Shown piece after piece: positions 1,697 through 43,981 of a stretch of DNA of 64,000 bases (position 1 is its first letter; every line of letters begins with the position of its first letter). The stretch is from a virus (lineage: Duplodnaviria > Caudoviricetes). Position numbers and translations under genes: made by a program. The notes below the pieces were generated by a model. It worked only from the letters and a program-made list of their open reading frames with translations. It did no database searches and had not been told where the DNA came from. The stretch spans positions 1 through 64,000 of IMG/VR virus record IMGVR_UViG_3300043102_000037; one strand, 5' to 3'.

Positions 1697-2323
1697 ATGA
1701 ATCTAAAAACTTTTGAACAGCGTAAAAAACTTGTTGAAAAGTACGGCGATGAACAAGTATATATCGTACCGTTTAATTATACTGAACATATAAAAAACGG
1801 CTTAAAAAATACTGACAAAAAATATCTAAAATTCTTATCAGCAGGGCGATATATACTTCGTTCTGATGCCGAAGGCGATATGACTTTTCAGCAAATTATT
1901 CCGTATTCGTATATCGTTTCAGAAGATGAAGAATACTTTATCACTGAACGCATAGGCGGCGAGGAACGCTTAAAAGGAAAATTGAGTATCGGCGTTGGCG
2001 GTCATATTAACCCGTGCGATGGCTATGAAGGGAACTTAGAAGCCGCTATGCGCCGAGAATTAAACGAAGAAATAATATTCCCTTACGATGCTCCAAAATT
2101 TGAATATGTAGGCACTGTAAGAGATTTAGCTTCTTCGACACCAGACCATTTAGGAATAGTGTATAAAATCGTTGTCAAAAACGAGGATAAAGAAAAAGTT
2201 CAAGTAAAAGAAATCTATAATTTAAAAGGAATGTGGCTTAATAAGGAGCAGCTTTTGAATAATTACTTAAAATTTGAAAGCTGGGCAAAATTCATTATTC
2301 AAGCCACTTTAGACACTAAATAA
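1697..2323 (+). CDS. NUDIX-family phosphoesterase
   Basis: FQQIIPY, LSIGVGGHINP, AAMRRELNEE (Nudix-box-like), DHLG motifs. Confidence 0.8.
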   Translation: MNLKTFEQRKKLVEKYGDEQVYIVPFNYTEHIKNGLKNTDKKYLKFLSAGRYILRSDAEGDMTFQQIIPYSYIVSEDEEYFITERIGGEERLKGKLSIGVGGHINPCDGYEGNLEAAMRRELNEEIIFPYDAPKFEYVGTVRDLASSTPDHLGIVYKIVVKNEDKEKVQVKEIYNLKGMWLNKEQLLNNYLKFESWAKFIIQATLDTK

Positions 2324-2324
2324 C

Positions 2325-4499
2325 ATGAATAACGTAAAAGAAACTAAATATGTGCAGAAGCGAGACGGCTCTATCGTTGACTTTGATGAAGATAGGATTT
2401 ATGAAGCTGTTAAAAAAGCGTCAATAAGTTCAGGCGAAAGCGTCAGAATAAGCAATATATTAAAGAAAACGCTAAAGAATCTCGCAACTAAAAATAAGGA
2501 CGTTTATACGGTCGCTGAAATTCAGACAATAGTAGAAAATGCGTTGATGAGCAGCAACTATAAAGATACGGCTCGTGCTTATATCATATATCGTAGTGAG
2601 CATGATAAAGCAAGAGAGAACATGAAAAACCTTATGTCGGCGATGTATGATATTACGTTTAAATCATCAGAAGATGTAAACGATAAGCGCGATAATGCCA
2701 ATATCAATACTGATACGGCTATGGGAGCTATGCTCAAATACGGCACTACAACGTCTAACTATTTCATCGACCATTACATTTTGCCTAAAGATATTGCAGA
2801 AGCACACATTAATGGCTATATACATATTCACGACAAAGACTTCTACGGTCTTACAGAAACGTGCTGTCAGATAGATTTAAGCAAGTTATATAAGAACGGT
2901 TTTAGCACAGGTCATGGGTATTTAAGAACACCAAATAGTATTGCTTCATATGCGTCTTTAGCAGCAATAGCCTTACAAGCCAATCAAAATGAAATGCACG
3001 GAGGACAAGCAATTCCTGCATTTGATTATTATATGGCTGATGGCATTGTAAAAACATTTAAGAAAGAATTTAAGAAAGTATGCTTAATTCTTTCTATTCC
3101 AGAACAGTTTGTTGAAAAAGTATTAAGTTTTATTACTACAATAGACTGTAAAGATATTATCTTTGAATTTCAAAAAGAAAATCTTCTTGATTACGCCAAA
3201 ATAGAAAAAGCATATAACGTAGCTTTAAGCGAAACCGATAAGGCTTGCTATCAAGCCATGGAAGGATTCGTGCATAATCTCAATACGCTTCATTCAAGGA
3301 GCGGCGGTCAAGTACCGTTCAGTTCAATAAATTACGGCACAGATACGTCACCAGAAGGAAGAATGGTCATTAGAAACCTTTTGCTTGCTACGCAGGCAGG
3401 CTTAGGTCATAATGAAACTCCTATATTTCCTGTACAGATATTTAAAGTTAAAGAAGGCATTAACTTTAACGAAGGCGACCCGAATTATGATTTATTTGAA
3501 CTTGCCATGGAAACATCGGCAAAGAGATTATTTCCTAATTTCAGCTTTATAGATTCGCCGTTTAACCTTAAATATTATAAAAAAGGCAATATTGATACTG
3601 AAATAGCTTACATGGGCTGTCGCACAAGGACTATAAGCAACGTAAATGGTCCAGAGATTTGTACAAGCCGAGGCAATTTAAGTTTTACAACTATTATATT
3701 GCCGAAGCTTGCTATTGAATCAGACCATAATATTGATACGTTCTTTGAAAAATTAGACTTTTATCTTGAATTATGCAAAAGACAATTATTGCATAGATTA
3801 AAGATACAGTCTAATAGATACGCCTTCAATTATCCATTTTTAATGGGGCAGGGCGTATGGCTTGACAGCGAAAAGCTGCACCCAGAAGATACCGTTAGAG
3901 AAGTATTAAAGCATGGTTCACTTAGTATAGGCTTTATTGGTCTTGCTGAAACTTTAATAGCTTTGGTAGGAAAGCACCATGGTGAAGATGAAAATGCAAG
4001 AGAATTAGGCTTAAAGATTATTTCTCATATGAGAGATATGACGGATAAGTTTACCGAAGAAACGCATTTAAACTTCGCACTTTTAGCTACGCCAGCCGAA
4101 GGACTTACGGGACGTGCTGCTAAGTTATTGCAGGAACAGTTTGGAATTATCGAAGGAGTTACGGACAAAGATTATTTGACTAACTCATTCCACGTTCCTC
4201 CGTATTACAAAATTAATGCGGCTAATAAAATAGCGATAGAAGCACCTTATCACTCCTTAACTAACGGCGGTCATATAACGTATGTAGAATTTGACGGCGA
4301 CCCGACAAACAATATCGAATCGTTTAAAACCGTCATTAGATACATGAAAGAACAAAATATTGGCTATGGTTCAATAAATCACCCGATAGATAGAGATTCT
4401 AAGTGCGGCTATACAGGAATAATAAATAATGAATGTCCTTGCTGCCATAGAAAAGAAACGGAAATAAGACATACTACCATAAAAAGAATTGAGGAATAA
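2325..4499 (+). CDS. nrdD: anaerobic (class III) ribonucleoside-triphosphate reductase, large chain lacking the glycyl-radical tail
   Basis: N-terminal ATP cone (VQKRDG), GYIHIHD, TCCQI, YMGCRT, RGNLSF, TPAEG, C-terminal CxxC pairs. No RITGY motif. Confidence 0.92.
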   Translation: MNNVKETKYVQKRDGSIVDFDEDRIYEAVKKASISSGESVRISNILKKTLKNLATKNKDVYTVAEIQTIVENALMSSNYKDTARAYIIYRSEHDKARENMKNLMSAMYDITFKSSEDVNDKRDNANINTDTAMGAMLKYGTTTSNYFIDHYILPKDIAEAHINGYIHIHDKDFYGLTETCCQIDLSKLYKNGFSTGHGYLRTPNSIASYASLAAIALQANQNEMHGGQAIPAFDYYMADGIVKTFKKEFKKVCLILSIPEQFVEKVLSFITTIDCKDIIFEFQKENLLDYAKIEKAYNVALSETDKACYQAMEGFVHNLNTLHSRSGGQVPFSSINYGTDTSPEGRMVIRNLLLATQAGLGHNETPIFPVQIFKVKEGINFNEGDPNYDLFELAMETSAKRLFPNFSFIDSPFNLKYYKKGNIDTEIAYMGCRTRTISNVNGPEICTSRGNLSFTTIILPKLAIESDHNIDTFFEKLDFYLELCKRQLLHRLKIQSNRYAFNYPFLMGQGVWLDSEKLHPEDTVREVLKHGSLSIGFIGLAETLIALVGKHHGEDENARELGLKIISHMRDMTDKFTEETHLNFALLATPAEGLTGRAAKLLQEQFGIIEGVTDKDYLTNSFHVPPYYKINAANKIAIEAPYHSLTNGGHITYVEFDGDPTNNIESFKTVIRYMKEQNIGYGSINHPIDRDSKCGYTGIINNECPCCHRKETEIRHTTIKRIEE

Positions 4500-8786: not shown

Positions 8787-11672
8787 TTGTACATTTCGCT
8801 TCATAATCACTATACAAATGGCAGTATAGGAGATTCAACCCTCATAACGGAAGATGCCATTAAAAAAGTCAAGTCTTTAAATATTCCTGCAATAGCTATG
8901 ACTGACCATGGTTCATTATCCAATATATATGACTTTTATCAAGTTTGTAAGAAAAACGATATAAAGCCTATTATCGGTATGGAAGCTTATGTAACGCAGG
9001 ATAGAAACATTAAAAATAAAGCTGAATTAAGAGAAAAGAATTACAGGAATTATCACCTTGTTTTATTGGCTATCAACAGCCAAGGCGTAAAAGACTTAAT
9101 AGCAATTCACAATGACGCTCAAATAAACGGTTTATTCGATAAAAGACCAAGAACAGACTTATTCGTATTATCTAAGTACGGCAAAAATATAATAGCATTG
9201 TCTGCTTGCGTAGGAGGGGAAATACCGCAGACAATATTAAACGATAAAGATTGGGTAAATAAATGCGTTAAGAAAATCAACGAATATAAAAACATATTCC
9301 ATGATTTTTATTTAGAATTGCAAATAGGCAATTTTAAAGAACAGATTTTCGTGAATAAAGCATTAGTTTACCTTGCGCATAAAACAAATACCAAACTTGT
9401 AATAACAAACGATGTACATTATTTAAATAAAGAAGATTATTTGATGCACAATTATCATGTTGCGTCATGCAACGCAGGTTTGGCAAAAAGTAAAGCTGAT
9501 GAATTAATTTATCCAGATAAAATATATTATCTTATGGCAGAAGATGAATTAAAGAGCCATGTAGTATACGATGATAAATACGTTACGGAAAAGGTCATAG
9601 ACGAAGCAATATTAAATACAGAGCGAATTGCTGATATGTGCGATGGTAAAATGGATATAGAACTGAGTATGCCGTCATTTAAAGATTTTCTGCCAGAAGG
9701 AAAAACTTCGCAGCAGGTTCTATTAGAGCATTGTACAAAAAGACTAAATTTTATAATCAACAGAGTAGAAGAACCGCACAAATACACTCCAAGATTATTA
9801 ATGGAATTAGATACGATTCATAAAATGCAGTTCGACGATTACTTCTTGATAATTAAAGACATAATAGATACGGCAAAAAAGAACAATATTGCAATAGGAA
9901 CAGGACGAGGGAGCTGTGGCGGCTCTCTCGTTAGTTTTTTATTAGGAATAACGAGAGTTGACCCGATAAAGCATAATCTTATGTTTGAAAGGTTTTTGTC
10001 AGTAAACAGAGCAGGATTACCAGATATAGACTTAGATATTGACGCAAAGAAAAGAGGTTTATTGCAGCAGTTAGTCGTTGAAAGATACGGCTTTAATCAT
10101 TGTTCTAAAGTCTATACCTTGCAATTAAGAAAAGCAAGACAGGCTATTAAAGATGCAGGCAGAGTGTTAGGCATGGATTCAAACTATGTAAACGATGAAA
10201 TATGCAAGCATATTAAAAGAATAGCCAAAACTGATGAATCTGGTGATACTACAATGGTAGAGCCAACTCTCGATGAAGCACTCGATTATTTTGATTCTTT
10301 AAAAGCGATGCGAAACAAGCATAAAGAATTATTCGATGTAGCCATAAAAATGGAGGGTTTCCCTAAAGCAAGTTCTGTCCATGCCGCAGGAATTATAATA
10401 AGCCCAAAGGATTTAAGCACGGTTATTCCGCTTGCAAGACAAAAAACAGATGAGGACGGCGAAGAAGGAAAAATATTAGTATCTACGCTTACTAAAGAAA
10501 GCATAGAGAATTTTGCCGTAAAATTTGACTTATTGGCGTTAAGCACAATAAGCTATGTAGACGACACTTTAAAGATGGCAAATATAAGCGAAAAGGAGAT
10601 TGATTTAGAGAATGAGGATTTTTATAATGACGAAAAAGTTTGGCAGTTAATTTCGTCCGAACTAACATCAGGAATATTTCAAATATCCTCTTACACATAT
10701 AAAAGCCGTATGCCATCTTTGCACCCGCACAGCTTAGATGAATTAGCTGCCTGCCTCGCGCTCGTCAGAGGTCCATGTATAGCGTCTGGACTTGATAAAA
10801 AATATATCAAAATATTAAATCATAAAGGCGTTATTGAACCATTATGCAAAGAATATTATGAAGTAACGAAGAATACTTTCTGTATACCTATTTATCAAGA
10901 ACAAATAATGCTTTTAGCAGTGGCTTTTGGCTTTGACTTGGATACTGGCTATCATTTATTAAAAGCCTGTGCTAAAAAGAAAATTAATAAAATAAAGGAG
11001 TATAAAGAAAAATTAATCTCTTGCGCAATAAATAAAGGAATACCTTTAAATATAGCCCAAAGAGTATGGAAAAACATTGAAGATAGCGGCAAATATTCTT
11101 TTAACGTATCTCATGCAACGTGCTATGCAGTTATGACTTATTTGTCAGCATGGCTAAAGGTTCATTATCCTACTGAATTTATGGCTGCATTTTTAACGCA
11201 TATATTCGAGAAAAAGAAAGACGAAAGAATTAAGCGCGAAATTATAAAGGAGATTATAGATAAAAATATCGCGTTCCTGCCGTTAGACATTAATAAATCA
11301 TCATGGAATTTTACCGTTGAAGATGGTAAAATAAGAATAGGTTTCTCTGCTGTGCAGGGAATCGGAAAGAAAAGCTATAACGTAATGTCTGCTGGCATTC
11401 CTTTTAACAGCCTACAAGAATATCATGACTTTTTTGTAGGCAAAAAGGGCTGCAATAAAACTCCGCAATATATCGCAATATTGAACGGGGCTTTTAATAA
11501 TATTGAAAATACGCCCGTAAAAGAACAAATGGTCAAATATATGACTATAAGAAAAGACAGAGAATTAAAAGAATCTAAGGATATTATCAGTATAGACAGT
11601 ACCCTAAATCAAATAGAGAGATTTTATTTCAAAACTCCTATTATGACTTTCAAGACAAGAAAAGGAGGATAA
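8787..11672 (+). CDS. dnaE: DNA polymerase III alpha subunit (DnaE-type), copy 1
   Basis: PHP motifs (HNH, TDHG, NDVHY), GRGSCGGS, PDIDLD, HAAG, KFDLL, YQEQ, YSFNVSHA. Confidence 0.93.
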   Translation: MYISLHNHYTNGSIGDSTLITEDAIKKVKSLNIPAIAMTDHGSLSNIYDFYQVCKKNDIKPIIGMEAYVTQDRNIKNKAELREKNYRNYHLVLLAINSQGVKDLIAIHNDAQINGLFDKRPRTDLFVLSKYGKNIIALSACVGGEIPQTILNDKDWVNKCVKKINEYKNIFHDFYLELQIGNFKEQIFVNKALVYLAHKTNTKLVITNDVHYLNKEDYLMHNYHVASCNAGLAKSKADELIYPDKIYYLMAEDELKSHVVYDDKYVTEKVIDEAILNTERIADMCDGKMDIELSMPSFKDFLPEGKTSQQVLLEHCTKRLNFIINRVEEPHKYTPRLLMELDTIHKMQFDDYFLIIKDIIDTAKKNNIAIGTGRGSCGGSLVSFLLGITRVDPIKHNLMFERFLSVNRAGLPDIDLDIDAKKRGLLQQLVVERYGFNHCSKVYTLQLRKARQAIKDAGRVLGMDSNYVNDEICKHIKRIAKTDESGDTTMVEPTLDEALDYFDSLKAMRNKHKELFDVAIKMEGFPKASSVHAAGIIISPKDLSTVIPLARQKTDEDGEEGKILVSTLTKESIENFAVKFDLLALSTISYVDDTLKMANISEKEIDLENEDFYNDEKVWQLISSELTSGIFQISSYTYKSRMPSLHPHSLDELAACLALVRGPCIASGLDKKYIKILNHKGVIEPLCKEYYEVTKNTFCIPIYQEQIMLLAVAFGFDLDTGYHLLKACAKKKINKIKEYKEKLISCAINKGIPLNIAQRVWKNIEDSGKYSFNVSHATCYAVMTYLSAWLKVHYPTEFMAAFLTHIFEKKKDERIKREIIKEIIDKNIAFLPLDINKSSWNFTVEDGKIRIGFSAVQGIGKKSYNVMSAGIPFNSLQEYHDFFVGKKGCNKTPQYIAILNGAFNNIENTPVKEQMVKYMTIRKDRELKESKDIISIDSTLNQIERFYFKTPIMTFKTRKGG

Positions 11673-41377: not shown

Positions 41378-42436
41378 TTAATTTATGCCAATAGCTTTTT
41401 TGCCGCTTCTTCTATTACGTTTAATCGTTGATACGTCAATGCCTTTTTTGGCAGCTAATTTTTCTAAGCATTTTCTTCTTTTGGTGTTTACCGTATTGAT
41501 GTGCATACCTATTGATTCAGCAATTTGCGAATCATTCCAACCTGCAAGATAATACTTAGATAAAATATTTCTTTCCTCTGGCGTAAACATTGAAAAAATA
41601 TCAGAGCAGGTATCGCCTTTTACCCAACTTAAATCGGGTACGCCATTTTCATCTTCATATACTTCATCTTCGTAAACGGTGTCATATGTAGCATTGGATA
41701 AAGCAAATTCTTCATAAGGCATTTTCTTATAATGAAAATTCAGTATTTCCTTTTGATACGGCTTTACTATCTTTCTAGCTACCGTATAATTAAAAGAATG
41801 ATATAAGAACGTGCAGAAGTTTTTGCCTACGTTATTATACCTTTGAGCGAGATATAATACCATTTCGCTTAAATCTGCTTCGATATTTTCTTTATCCTGC
41901 TTGCCGTATCCTTCGCATATGAAGTTGAATTTGGCGGTTATTTGGTCTTTTATGTCTTTGCTAATATTCTTATTCCATAAGCATTTTTTTATAAATGACG
42001 ATTCAAGGAATAAGCTAACGAAGATTTTTTGCTCTTGGTCGTTGAAATTAATTTGACCTGTTTTAAAGAGCGATATATATTTCTTAATCATCGGCTTAAA
42101 ACTCATTACGAGTTTTAACGCCGCTTTGTTTGCGTTCTCTTTTATTTCTTTTGATGCGTTTTCATTAAAGCCATCACAAACTCTTTTGCCCGTACTTTCT
42201 TTAATCGAATACTTAAATTGCTTTTGGTATTCCATTACCGCATCGTCTATTTCCTGCCAACTTCTTTTATCTTCGGCTAAGTCATTTAATTGACCGAAGT
42301 AATCTGCGTATACTGTGTAAGCGGAAAAGCCAAAATCCTCATCATCTTCTGGAATGATGGCATCTCCGCTTTGTGTTGGCAGTTCACGATTTTTTTTGTT
42401 TTTACTTCTCTTTTTAGGTTCTTTGTCTTTACTCAT
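41378..42436 (-). CDS. sigma70-family RNA polymerase sigma-factor-like protein
   Basis: C-terminal region-4 HTH (TPEERNIL..YY..GWNDSQIAE.IGMH.NTV...R); region-2-like middle part. Confidence 0.65.
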   Translation of the reverse strand: MSKDKEPKKRSKNKKNRELPTQSGDAIIPEDDEDFGFSAYTVYADYFGQLNDLAEDKRSWQEIDDAVMEYQKQFKYSIKESTGKRVCDGFNENASKEIKENANKAALKLVMSFKPMIKKYISLFKTGQINFNDQEQKIFVSLFLESSFIKKCLWNKNISKDIKDQITAKFNFICEGYGKQDKENIEADLSEMVLYLAQRYNNVGKNFCTFLYHSFNYTVARKIVKPYQKEILNFHYKKMPYEEFALSNATYDTVYEDEVYEDENGVPDLSWVKGDTCSDIFSMFTPEERNILSKYYLAGWNDSQIAESIGMHINTVNTKRRKCLEKLAAKKGIDVSTIKRNRRSGKKAIGIN

Positions 42437-42483: not shown

Positions 42484-43059
42484 CTATTTATTTACTTTCT
42501 TTTTACTTTGTTTCTTTAGCTTTGCGTACTCATTAGAAGTACACCATTTTTTATCTTTAGCTATATATTTATAGCAGACAAGGTTAAGGTTTGGATAGAC
42601 GTATTCAAATAGCTTTTTCTTTATTTTGAATACGTCTGTTTCTATTCCCTTAACGTCTATAACGTCTGTCTTGCCGTCTATGCCATGGACGACAAAATCA
42701 GCGAAATACGATATTTTTCGTATAGTCTGATTATTTTTTTTAAAAGCAGGTTGAAGAACGAACTCTTTTTGCAATTCAAACGACTTAATTTTCTTGGCTT
42801 TCGCACTTTTAAGAAGTAATATGTAGAATCTGCTCTCTATGATAGAGTCAAATAATATGTCGTCAATATATACCTTTTTATTGCCTAATTTACTGGTATG
42901 CTCGTCTTTTGAACTCGGAAGTAAAAAAGATTTAATTAAACCGTTTTTTTGGTATTCTTCTAATTCCAAAGAATAATCTTTTAATGATTTACTGGAGTAT
43001 TTACTTGTCTTTGCTGCTGATGAAGATGCAGCCGTTTTCTTCCTGCTTTTAAATGGCAT
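42484..43059 (-). CDS. DUF1064-like PD-(D/E)XK endonuclease
   Basis: FDS..E..FY, ELQ..F.LQP.F, Y.ADF, DVKG..TDVFKIKKKLF. Confidence 0.8.
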   Translation of the reverse strand: MPFKSRKKTAASSSAAKTSKYSSKSLKDYSLELEEYQKNGLIKSFLLPSSKDEHTSKLGNKKVYIDDILFDSIIESRFYILLLKSAKAKKIKSFELQKEFVLQPAFKKNNQTIRKISYFADFVVHGIDGKTDVIDVKGIETDVFKIKKKLFEYVYPNLNLVCYKYIAKDKKWCTSNEYAKLKKQSKKKVNK

Positions 43060-43073
43060 TTAAATCACCGTTT

Positions 43074-43238
43074 TTACTTATTCGTTTTCGTTTTACAAGC
43101 CGATTTAGCTTTGGTCTTGCAAGCGGATTTAGTCGATTTTGTTTTACAAGCCGACTTAGATTTTGTCTTGCAAGCAGATTTAATATTGCTGCTCATACTT
43201 GTTGGCATCGTTGCTTCTTTAACTTTGTTAATAATCAT
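43074..43238 (-). CDS. 54-aa peptide with four KSACKTK repeats (SCIFF/ranthipeptide-like); not in the ORF track
   Basis: MIINKVKEATMPTSMSSNIKSACKTKSKSACKTKSTKSACKTKAKSACKTKTNK*. RBS AAGGGTGG at 43254-43247. Repeats differ only at synonymous positions; co-oriented and tightly packed between operon genes. Confidence 0.85.
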   Translation of the reverse strand: MIINKVKEATMPTSMSSNIKSACKTKSKSACKTKSTKSACKTKAKSACKTKTNK

Positions 43239-43240
43239 CG

Positions 43241-43981
43241 CTATGACCACCCTTTACAATAATGTTTTGCCCTGCATGAACTGCAAAGCGGAGAACTTCG
43301 AGGATAAATAATGTTTTGTCTAATGCTTTTCACTACATTTTTTAGTATCTTATCTAATCTCTGATAGTCCATAGCGTTTCTTGTAGTGTAAAAATCTTTG
43401 TTATGCTTTACACTGTGCCATCGGCAGCCCAATATTCGTTTGCCGTATTTTTTCTCAAATACAGCGCAGTCAATAGTAACTTTTAAATCCAAGTCTATAT
43501 CAGCCTGTTCTCTTATTTTGCTGCTAAAATCCAATACAAGAAACTCTAAATTATCTTTCTCATTTACCATAATAGTATTCATTACGCCGCTAAGAGATAT
43601 TATATGATAATCGGCAGGATTTTTACTGCCGTTATTTATTTCATAGATATAAGGCATTTGTTCGCTTGCTATGCGAAGTTCTCTATTAGCCGCCCAATTA
43701 TACATGGCATTTAATAGCCCTAATCCTTCTATATTTCTCTTAGAGTTGATAATGTCTGTATTCGCCTTGCTAATCATATCCCATTTGCGTTTAACATCAT
43801 ACATGGGCATTATTTTGTTATTCATTAGCTGCAAGAAGAATCCAGACGCTACTTTACTAAGCAATTTATTAAAACTTTGCGTTTCGCTTACCGTAAAATC
43901 ATTTGCGTATCTAAAATAGTAATATACGGGGCATTTCATATAATCAATAAGCTGCTTTTCAGTTATCTTTGAGGTAATCAT
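43241..43981 (-). CDS. PD-(D/E)XK (RecB/Cas4-like) nuclease-fold protein
   Basis: N-terminal Y..CP and C-terminal PR...C..C..K..C cysteine cluster. Confidence 0.6.
   Translation of the reverse strand: MITSKITEKQLIDYMKCPVYYYFRYANDFTVSETQSFNKLLSKVASGFFLQLMNNKIMPMYDVKRKWDMISKANTDIINSKRNIEGLGLLNAMYNWAANRELRIASEQMPYIYEINNGSKNPADYHIISLSGVMNTIMVNEKDNLEFLVLDFSSKIREQADIDLDLKVTIDCAVFEKKYGKRILGCRWHSVKHNKDFYTTRNAMDYQRLDKILKNVVKSIRQNIIYPRSSPLCSSCRAKHYCKGWS

Follow-up and report, generated by a model that had tools for sequence, protein, structure and literature searches.

Between two nuclease genes of an uncultured, jumbo-type phage lies a short minus-strand reading frame whose product repeats the heptapeptide KSACKTK four times. 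The locus was analysed within a window of 64 kb, which is part of an IMG/VR record of 89,488 bp with an estimated completeness of 38%. As the repeated motif contains the pentapeptide SACKT, which is also present in the precursors of the clostridial ranthipeptide SCIFF, a preliminary description of this DNA had proposed that the phage multiplies the motif as a mimic that hijacks or jams a maturase of its host, and had offered as an alternative a basic, Cys-bearing peptide that binds DNA or metal. The locus therefore raises the questions of whether the frame is a gene at all, whether its product belongs with SCIFF, and which function its composition and its position in the genome would best support.

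A small reading frame in the replication operon

The reading frame encodes 54 residues and fills an otherwise empty gap of 181 nt in a long minus-strand operon, in which the neighbouring genes encode a primase, a DnaB-like helicase, a Cas4-like nuclease, a DUF1064 protein, a sigma-70-like factor and a RecJ-like exonuclease; DnaE also belongs to this replication/recombination module (features and coordinates in Table 1). When the upstream strings of all operon genes are compared, the string AAGGGTGG preceding the ATG ranks among the best Shine-Dalgarno matches of the operon. Neither a promoter nor a terminator belonging to the frame itself was found above shuffle expectation, and a frameshift fusion to the DUF1064 gene is ruled out by stop codons in the DUF1064 frame just 5' of its ATG.

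The encoded peptide has a mass of 5.8 kDa, a pI of 10.2 and a net charge of about +13, and contains 15 Lys, 4 Cys, a single Glu and no Gly. Following a non-repetitive head, its tail of 35 residues includes 13 Lys, 6 Ser, 6 Thr, 5 Ala and the 4 Cys, being formed by four KSACKTK units joined by S, ST and A and closed by TNK at the C-terminal end. At the DNA level the array corresponds to a double unit of 51 nt present in 2.1 copies with 87% matches (Tandem Repeats Finder). The coordinates, strand, translation and four codon strings of the preliminary description proved exact, and so did its count of 15 Lys and its assignment of a ribosome binding site to the frame.

Concerning the bacterium that this phage infects, the nearest relatives of the phage IS607 TnpB are encoded in gut Clostridia MAGs, with 71% identity to that of a Ruminococcus MAG, followed by those of Turicibacter, Lachnospiraceae, Clostridium and Intestinibacter. 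One of the related contigs originates from a bovine metagenome, and together with the TnpB relatives this suggests that the host is probably a gut or rumen Firmicute, an assignment that is weak.

Table 1. Features of the small-gene locus in the window and corresponding loci of related phages.
Feature	Position	Strand	Remarks
54-aa ORF, including TAA stop	43074..43238	(-)	19-aa head and 35-aa Lys/Ser/Thr/Ala/Cys tail; gene call in Logan contig L193
Shine-Dalgarno-like AAGGGTGG	43247..43254	(-)	8 nt 5' of the ATG, within the final codons of the upstream nuclease gene; from upstream strings of all operon genes
Non-repeat head, codons 1-19	43182..43238	(-)	sole acidic residue Glu8, in V-K-E
KSACKTK unit 1	43161..43181	(-)	
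KSACKTK unit 2	43137..43157	(-)	
KSACKTK unit 3	43110..43130	(-)	
KSACKTK unit 4	43086..43106	(-)	
Antisense 66-aa ORF, TTG start	43111-43311	(+)	VLQADL x4, then hydrophobic helix; no Shine-Dalgarno sequence; codon model -1.2 bits
Cas4-like PD-(D/E)XK nuclease	43241..43981	(-)	C-terminal Cys cluster; stop 2 nt before the peptide ATG; weak Pfam PF12705 match; sister-phage orthologues 30-38% identity
DUF1064 / PHROG 190 'Holliday junction resolvase'	42484..43059	(-)	basic 55-aa N-terminal extension; ATG 14 nt past the peptide stop
Sigma-70-like factor	41378..42436	(-)	last in the conserved order nuclease, small ORF, DUF1064, sigma
L082, slot peptide of the most distant locus	2262-2402	(+)	47 aa, Lys-rich, 4 Cys; DUF1064 absent
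L059 (G004), slot protein	3190-3711	(+)	173 aa, regulator-like
L178, slot	2335-2529	(+)	64-aa protein with 8 Cys, accompanied by an HNH gene
L030, extra ORF	1913-2113	(+)	66 aa, Cys-containing
Slot peptide / head maturation protease loci			L061/L075 (G001), L063/L073 (G002), L071/L076 (G003); protease alone L072 (G005)

Coding constraint and the choice of strand

Comparison of the four 21-nt cores reveals five variable columns, all five of which fall at codon position 3, and every core encodes an identical KSACKTK; the probability that five variable sites fall in one phase is about 0.003. When the changes are placed on the duplication tree, the core events amount to 7 synonymous and 0 non-synonymous, an outcome with a probability of about 1.6e-5 under equal mutation and of 4.6e-4 if only transitions are considered. 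Between the linkers of the two 51-nt halves there are three differences, none of them synonymous.

The preliminary description had taken the synonymous differences as a sign of selection on the peptide. The synonymy and the coding constraint are indeed evident, but the strand is left ambiguous, a point that had been missed: in one plus-strand frame, with VLQADL as its fourfold repeat, the same five sites again fall at the wobble position, so that the repeat differences are equally synonymous there. Since this holds in both frames, the pattern shows a constraint of coding type but leaves the choice of strand to other evidence. With a codon model derived from 41 long ORFs of the genome, the minus ORF scores +7.9 bits versus -1.2 bits for the plus ORF, the reference values per 54 codons being 20.5 ± 6.9 for true frames and -32 ± 15 for wobble-aligned antisense frames; inside the repeats alone the model does not separate the two frames (-0.2 vs +0.9 bits). 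The minus strand is favoured by its ATG with a Shine-Dalgarno sequence, by the exact fit into the gap of the minus-strand operon, by the codon model and by the fact that one public gene caller predicts the 54-aa ORF on contig L193. It is also favoured by the situation in the related phages, every one of which has at this slot a same-strand small ORF with a strong Shine-Dalgarno sequence.

Readings in which the functional product is something other than the minus-strand peptide are very unlikely in our judgement, whether the plus ORF is taken to be the gene, the repeats to act as DNA in the manner of iterons, or the ORF to be young and functionless. Such readings draw on the equal synonymy of the VLQADL frame, on the inability of the codon model to part the frames within the repeats, and on the iteron-like appearance of four direct repeats within a replication module. 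Nevertheless, the only start codon of the plus ORF is a TTG inside the array, it runs antisense into the nuclease gene, and apart from its negative score and missing Shine-Dalgarno sequence it resembles the hydrophobic shadow that Lys codons usually cast on the antisense strand. A constraint acting purely at the DNA level, in turn, would not confine the variable sites to a single codon phase, and the constant presence of a same-strand small ORF in the sister-phage slot also argues against these readings.

An RNA family or an unusual RNA fold is ruled out as an explanation, as Rfam gave no match in the region and the fold z-score is 0.45. Strains from six metagenomes (L191-L196) differ at no position of either the 165-nt small ORF or the 576-nt DUF1064 gene, compared with as many as 8 SNPs within the nuclease gene of 741 nt, numbers which are too small for significance; as the copies of the small ORF on these six further contigs are identical, population variation is uninformative.

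An orphan peptide in a conserved slot

A word-indexed search of 5.8 billion proteins returned no homologue of the peptide, and exhaustive phmmer against 1.84 billion representatives returned a single match, a spurious one to a 2733-aa protein composed of 64-aa repeats. There was likewise no match by tblastn in 50,697 phage records, no usable match in the ESM Atlas and none in the PDB at E≤10; the exact sequence was absent upon look-up, and PHROGs, Pfam and NCBIfam yielded nothing except a sub-threshold match to SCIFF. Scans of IMG/VR DNA for patterns encoding KSACKTK, or two ACKT units 12 nt apart, recovered only chance or out-of-frame matches. The peptide is an orphan, without a sequence homologue in any of the collections searched.

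Its position, on the other hand, is shared. The order nuclease, small ORF (31-55 aa), DUF1064 and sigma factor is kept in related jumbo phages, represented by contigs of 100-250 kb on which the nuclease orthologues have 30-38% and the DUF1064 orthologues 35-54% identity, and five related contigs (G001-G005) have the same head protease. The 54-aa ORF occupies the equivalent place, on the strand of its neighbours, with the Cas4-like nuclease on one side and DUF1064 and the sigma factor on the other. Eleven distinct slot peptides of 31-55 aa were compared (L058, L063, L071, L030, L098, L130, L180, L181, L184, L201 and L202), and these have in common an N-terminal motif of about 13 residues, I/L-E-I/L-x-E-Y/R-x-G-x-x-P-K, followed by freely variable tails of low complexity. 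The tails are Lys/Thr-rich and repetitive in L058, L063, L071, L098 and L130, and mixed or acidic in the nearest DUF1064 relatives (48-54% identity: L180, L181, L184, L201 and L202). None of the eleven peptides bearing the motif contains Cys.

The window peptide resembles this group in slot, strand, size and the arrangement of a short head and a low-complexity tail, but it has four Cys and lacks the motif that the others carry, some of them with acidic tails. Scored against the motif it reaches -15 (ungapped) or -3 (gapped) with the PSSM and -1.5 bits with the HMM, ranking about 365th of 2234 six-frame segments, which rules it out as a member of the sister-phage slot family. Judging from these comparisons, it is a positional analogue, which has either diverged past recognition or replaced the original occupant. 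In fact, the occupants of the slot vary considerably elsewhere as well: the most distant locus (L082), which lacks a DUF1064 gene, has there a Lys-rich four-Cys peptide, G004 a regulator-like protein of 173 aa, and L178 an HNH gene together with a 64-aa protein with eight Cys, and in L030 an additional Cys-containing ORF is found. Small genes turn over with particular frequency at the site that follows the Cas4-like nuclease.

The DUF1064 proteins of this clade themselves carry N-terminal tails rich in Lys, Thr, Ser and Arg (in the window, at 42484-43059 (-), and at L058 3353-3889, L059 3746-4183, L063 308-814 and L181 2501-3109), which are absent from the DUF1064 of ordinary 40-kb siphophages. 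The DUF1064 tail of G004, a genome devoid of a slot peptide, is similar in composition to the repeats of the window peptide.

A terminus shared with the head protease in sister phages

In each of the genomes G001, G002 and G003 the same N-terminal decapeptide (MAIEI[KR]E..) occurs on exactly two genes, those of the slot peptide and of the head maturation protease, and a control with the reversed pattern gave 0. In these three genomes the protease is fused to an acidic, scaffold-like tail, and synonymous codons at several positions of the shared decapeptide co-vary within genomes. By analogy with phage T4, the decapeptide may be a capsid-targeting or processing signal similar to the T4 CTS, or else it may reflect gene conversion. 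The internal proteins of T4 are basic and carry an N-terminal capsid-targeting propeptide of 10-19 residues that is cut at (L/I)xE, and a site of this kind is also present close to the N-terminus of T4 gp21 (PMC9026906).

A comparable arrangement could be imagined for the window peptide, in which a propeptide ending in V-K-E at residues 6-8 would direct the peptide to the prohead, the head protease would cut it there, and the basic tail would be packaged with the DNA. This reading is supported by the precedent of T4, by the restriction of the decapeptide to slot peptide and head protease in the sister phages, and by the fact that the only Glu of the window peptide stands precisely in an h-K-E context. 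We consider it unlikely nonetheless: the sister-phage motif is absent from the window peptide, no second ORF with the N-terminus of the peptide exists on the contig, the gene is located in the replication operon rather than in a head module, and capsid targeting is an inference even for the sister phages. Moreover, the 89-kb contig does not encode the head protease, the protein with which the N-terminus would have to be compared. Like the T4 proteins IPI-III (PMC9026906), the window peptide is small, basic and of phage origin, and a putative short segment at its N-terminus ends in hydrophobic-x-Glu; there is no sequence relation, and the window gene differs in its location in a replication operon and in lacking the targeting motif of the sister phages.

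Comparison with SCIFF

The facts about SCIFF on which the mimic had been built are sound. Precursors encoded beside TIGR03974 maturases in one Lachnospiraceae and one Clostridium genome (L094 and L095) do contain CQSACKTSC, and the Cys-Thr cross-link attributed to CteB agrees with the literature, according to which the co-expressed enzyme forms a Cys32-Thr34 C-gamma thioether in SCIFF, that is, in the C-K-T of SACKT (review, PMC8326336). The same review describes docking of the SCIFF leader to the RRE domain of the maturase in the form of a beta strand (PMC8326336). In common with SCIFF (TIGR03973 / PF13165), the phage peptide has the SACKT motif, which in SCIFF holds the cross-link, and a small size, and its probable host clade, the Clostridia, carries the SCIFF system.

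A distinct scenario results from all other aspects of the comparison. The SCIFF HMMs give the 54-aa peptide 7.6 bits, far under their cut-offs, with E 3.7 for NCBIfam TIGR03973 (cut-off 50) and E 4.9 for Pfam PF13165 (cut-off 27), and BLASTP against a genuine SCIFF gives E 0.43, with only the low-complexity cores being aligned. Whereas SCIFF places six Cys within about 45 residues, in a C-x2-C-x3-C-x3-C-x3-C ladder that follows GG, the phage peptide has four Cys spaced 8/9/8 and no Gly. SCIFF starts with a leader of the type MKHIK[TS][IV]N..., used for docking to the RRE domain, which the phage peptide does not have, its head agreeing with the MKHIK-type leader at 2 of 8 residues. As to charge, the core of SCIFF is close to neutral, unlike the strongly basic phage peptide, in which the motif is moreover tandemly repeated. 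Finally, SCIFF is encoded beside a radical-SAM/SPASM maturase, and no such gene is adjacent to the phage ORF; the absence of a radical-SAM gene noted earlier for the window extends to the complete record of 89,488 bp, in which neither TIGR03974 nor PF04055 has a match, although the phage may have a copy farther away, as this record covers about 38% of the genome. The 54-aa peptide is not a member of the SCIFF family.

This does not by itself decide on the proposal that the peptide, without being a SCIFF, offers four SACKT sites as a substrate or competitive inhibitor of the ranthipeptide maturase of the host and in this way perturbs a SCIFF-dependent signal, which we regard as quite unlikely. 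SACKT is identical to residues 30-34 of the SCIFF precursors retrieved, the thioether formed by CteB lies in exactly the C-K-T that the phage repeats, KSACKTK is kept four times under purifying selection, and SCIFF is the only family reported by either HMM library, with a non-significant score. In addition, SCIFF maturases scoring above the curated cut-off are present in three of the five Clostridia genomes that harbour the nearest relatives of the phage IS607 TnpB, which speaks against hosts of this kind lacking SCIFF systems, the host assignment itself being weak. One of the genomes analysed, a Ruminococcus-labelled MAG (G006), contains a SCIFF maturase (L093, 717 bits) with a 242-aa membrane protein upstream and no SCIFF-like precursor ORF in the 1.5-kb flanks.

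Set against this, the mimic has the pentapeptide as its sole support, and this was spotted post hoc. By our own estimate, in tails rich in Lys, Ser, Ala and Thr, as found in the sister peptides, a single Cys flanked by four such residues gives SACKT in about 1 of 256 cases. The low scores, the Cys spacing of 8/9/8 instead of six Cys at intervals of 2-5, the lack of a GGCG.C element and of a leader, and the charge all count against the mimic. There is no maturase, peptidase or exporter on the contig, and in the two near-complete sister phages the radical-SAM proteins are only small ones (167-243 aa), none of them a SPASM maturase. The tblastn search gave no relative in the phage records, and the patterns in IMG/VR revealed no other phage with a KSACKTK or ACKT-repeat peptide. 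In the slot peptides of related phages Cys is mostly absent, an observation which counts only weakly against the mimic, given that these are positional counterparts rather than sequence homologues. In its most specific form, the proposal would be that of a leaderless-type decoy that displays four Cys-Lys-Thr sites of the near-universal host SCIFF, and that a maturase of gut or rumen Clostridia modifies or is titrated by; this version appears to us slightly less probable still. The string SACKTK also occurs once elsewhere in the window, at position 10427 (+), inside dnaE1 and out of frame, apparently by chance, which shows that the pentapeptide can arise randomly in an AT-rich genome.

Nature of the peptide

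The explanation that we tentatively prefer, while giving it somewhat less than an even chance, is that of a lineage-specific, disordered polycation which binds nucleic acid in replication, recombination or condensation, and whose thiols would be available for metal- or redox-dependent cross-links. According to this proposal, translation of the small gene, probably coupled to that of both flanking nuclease genes, would yield an intrinsically disordered polycation of about +13, which would bind nucleic acid electrostatically while the phage DNA is replicated, recombined or condensed. It would act similarly to the Lys/Ala/Ser/Thr-rich tails of H1-like and HU-tail proteins, to protamines and to the internal proteins of T4, with one thiol per repeat allowing metal- or redox-dependent cross-linking. 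That the frame is expressed as such a peptide is suggested by the wobble-only variation of the cores, the gene-like junctions, the location of all neighbours on the same strand and the codon model, and by the fact that no RNA family or unusual fold accounts for the region. The nature of the product is suggested by the Lys-rich composition of the tail, the pI and the replication/recombination module, as well as by the Lys/Thr-rich repetitive tails of five slot peptides, the Lys/Thr/Ser-rich tails of DUF1064 and the four-Cys peptide of L082. The putative basic, Cys-bearing peptide that had been named earlier as the alternative fits composition and genomic context better than the mimic does, and comes near to the explanation preferred here.

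Polycationic, repetitive DNA-binding tails are found in the C-terminus of histone H1, in the tail of mycobacterial HupB and in chlamydial Hc2, and there are Cys-bearing protamines in which Cys is used for cross-linking. The window peptide is similar to these in being polycationic, of low complexity and tandemly repeated, with Lys-rich repeats of 8-9 residues present four times in the tail. The tails of H1, HupB and Hc2 are, however, attached to a folded domain, whereas the window peptide is a free-standing putative DNA binder of 54 aa, and it uses Lys rather than Arg and has one strictly conserved Cys per 8-9 residues. A Cys preserved in each repeat is not typical of plain polycationic tails, and the preferred explanation leaves it unaccounted for. 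Two further observations go against this explanation: as the slot tails of the nearest DUF1064 relatives are mixed or acidic, basicity of the tail is not conserved among slot peptides, and the window peptide, which lacks the slot motif, may be a non-orthologous replacement that serves another purpose.

Other functions can be derived from the neighbourhood and from the Cys residues. The tight start and stop junctions with both neighbours and the conserved order of nuclease, small ORF and DUF1064 would suit an accessory or coupling element, the peptide tethering or regulating DUF1064 or the Cas4-like nuclease, or its translation serving mainly to couple that of DUF1064. This is improbable, as the partners are separable, a slot peptide existing without DUF1064 in L082 and DUF1064 existing with a 173-aa slot protein in G004, and as pure coupling would not hold the residues of the heptad under purifying selection. 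A small metal-binding protein, in which the four Cys, one from each repeat, jointly ligate a Zn or Fe-S centre and fold the tail, would make use of the exact number of four invariant Cys, and the adjoining nuclease is of the Cas4 type with a Cys cluster of its own. The probability of such a centre is nevertheless very low, since neither zinc ribbons nor knuckles have a pattern of 8/9/8 without CxxC pairs, since Pfam, NCBIfam, PHROGs and PDB show no match, and since the strong charge repulsion would oppose a compact fold.

Implications

The locus is a well-documented case of a hidden small phage gene, of a sort that most gene callers miss. It encodes an orphan polycationic Cys-repeat peptide, situated in a hot spot of small-gene turnover within the replication operon of an uncultured group of Firmicutes phages of about 150-250 kb. 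If the slot peptides of this group were capsid-targeted cargo, to which the terminus in common with the head protease points in the sister phages, the principle known from T4 would extend to Gram-positive jumbo phages and would provide a handle for packaging foreign proteins. If the Cys repeats were enzymatically cross-linked, this would represent the use or the sabotage of host RiPP chemistry by a virus, and a decoy of the SCIFF maturase, if true, would be the first instance of a virus interfering with a bacterial signal based on a RiPP.
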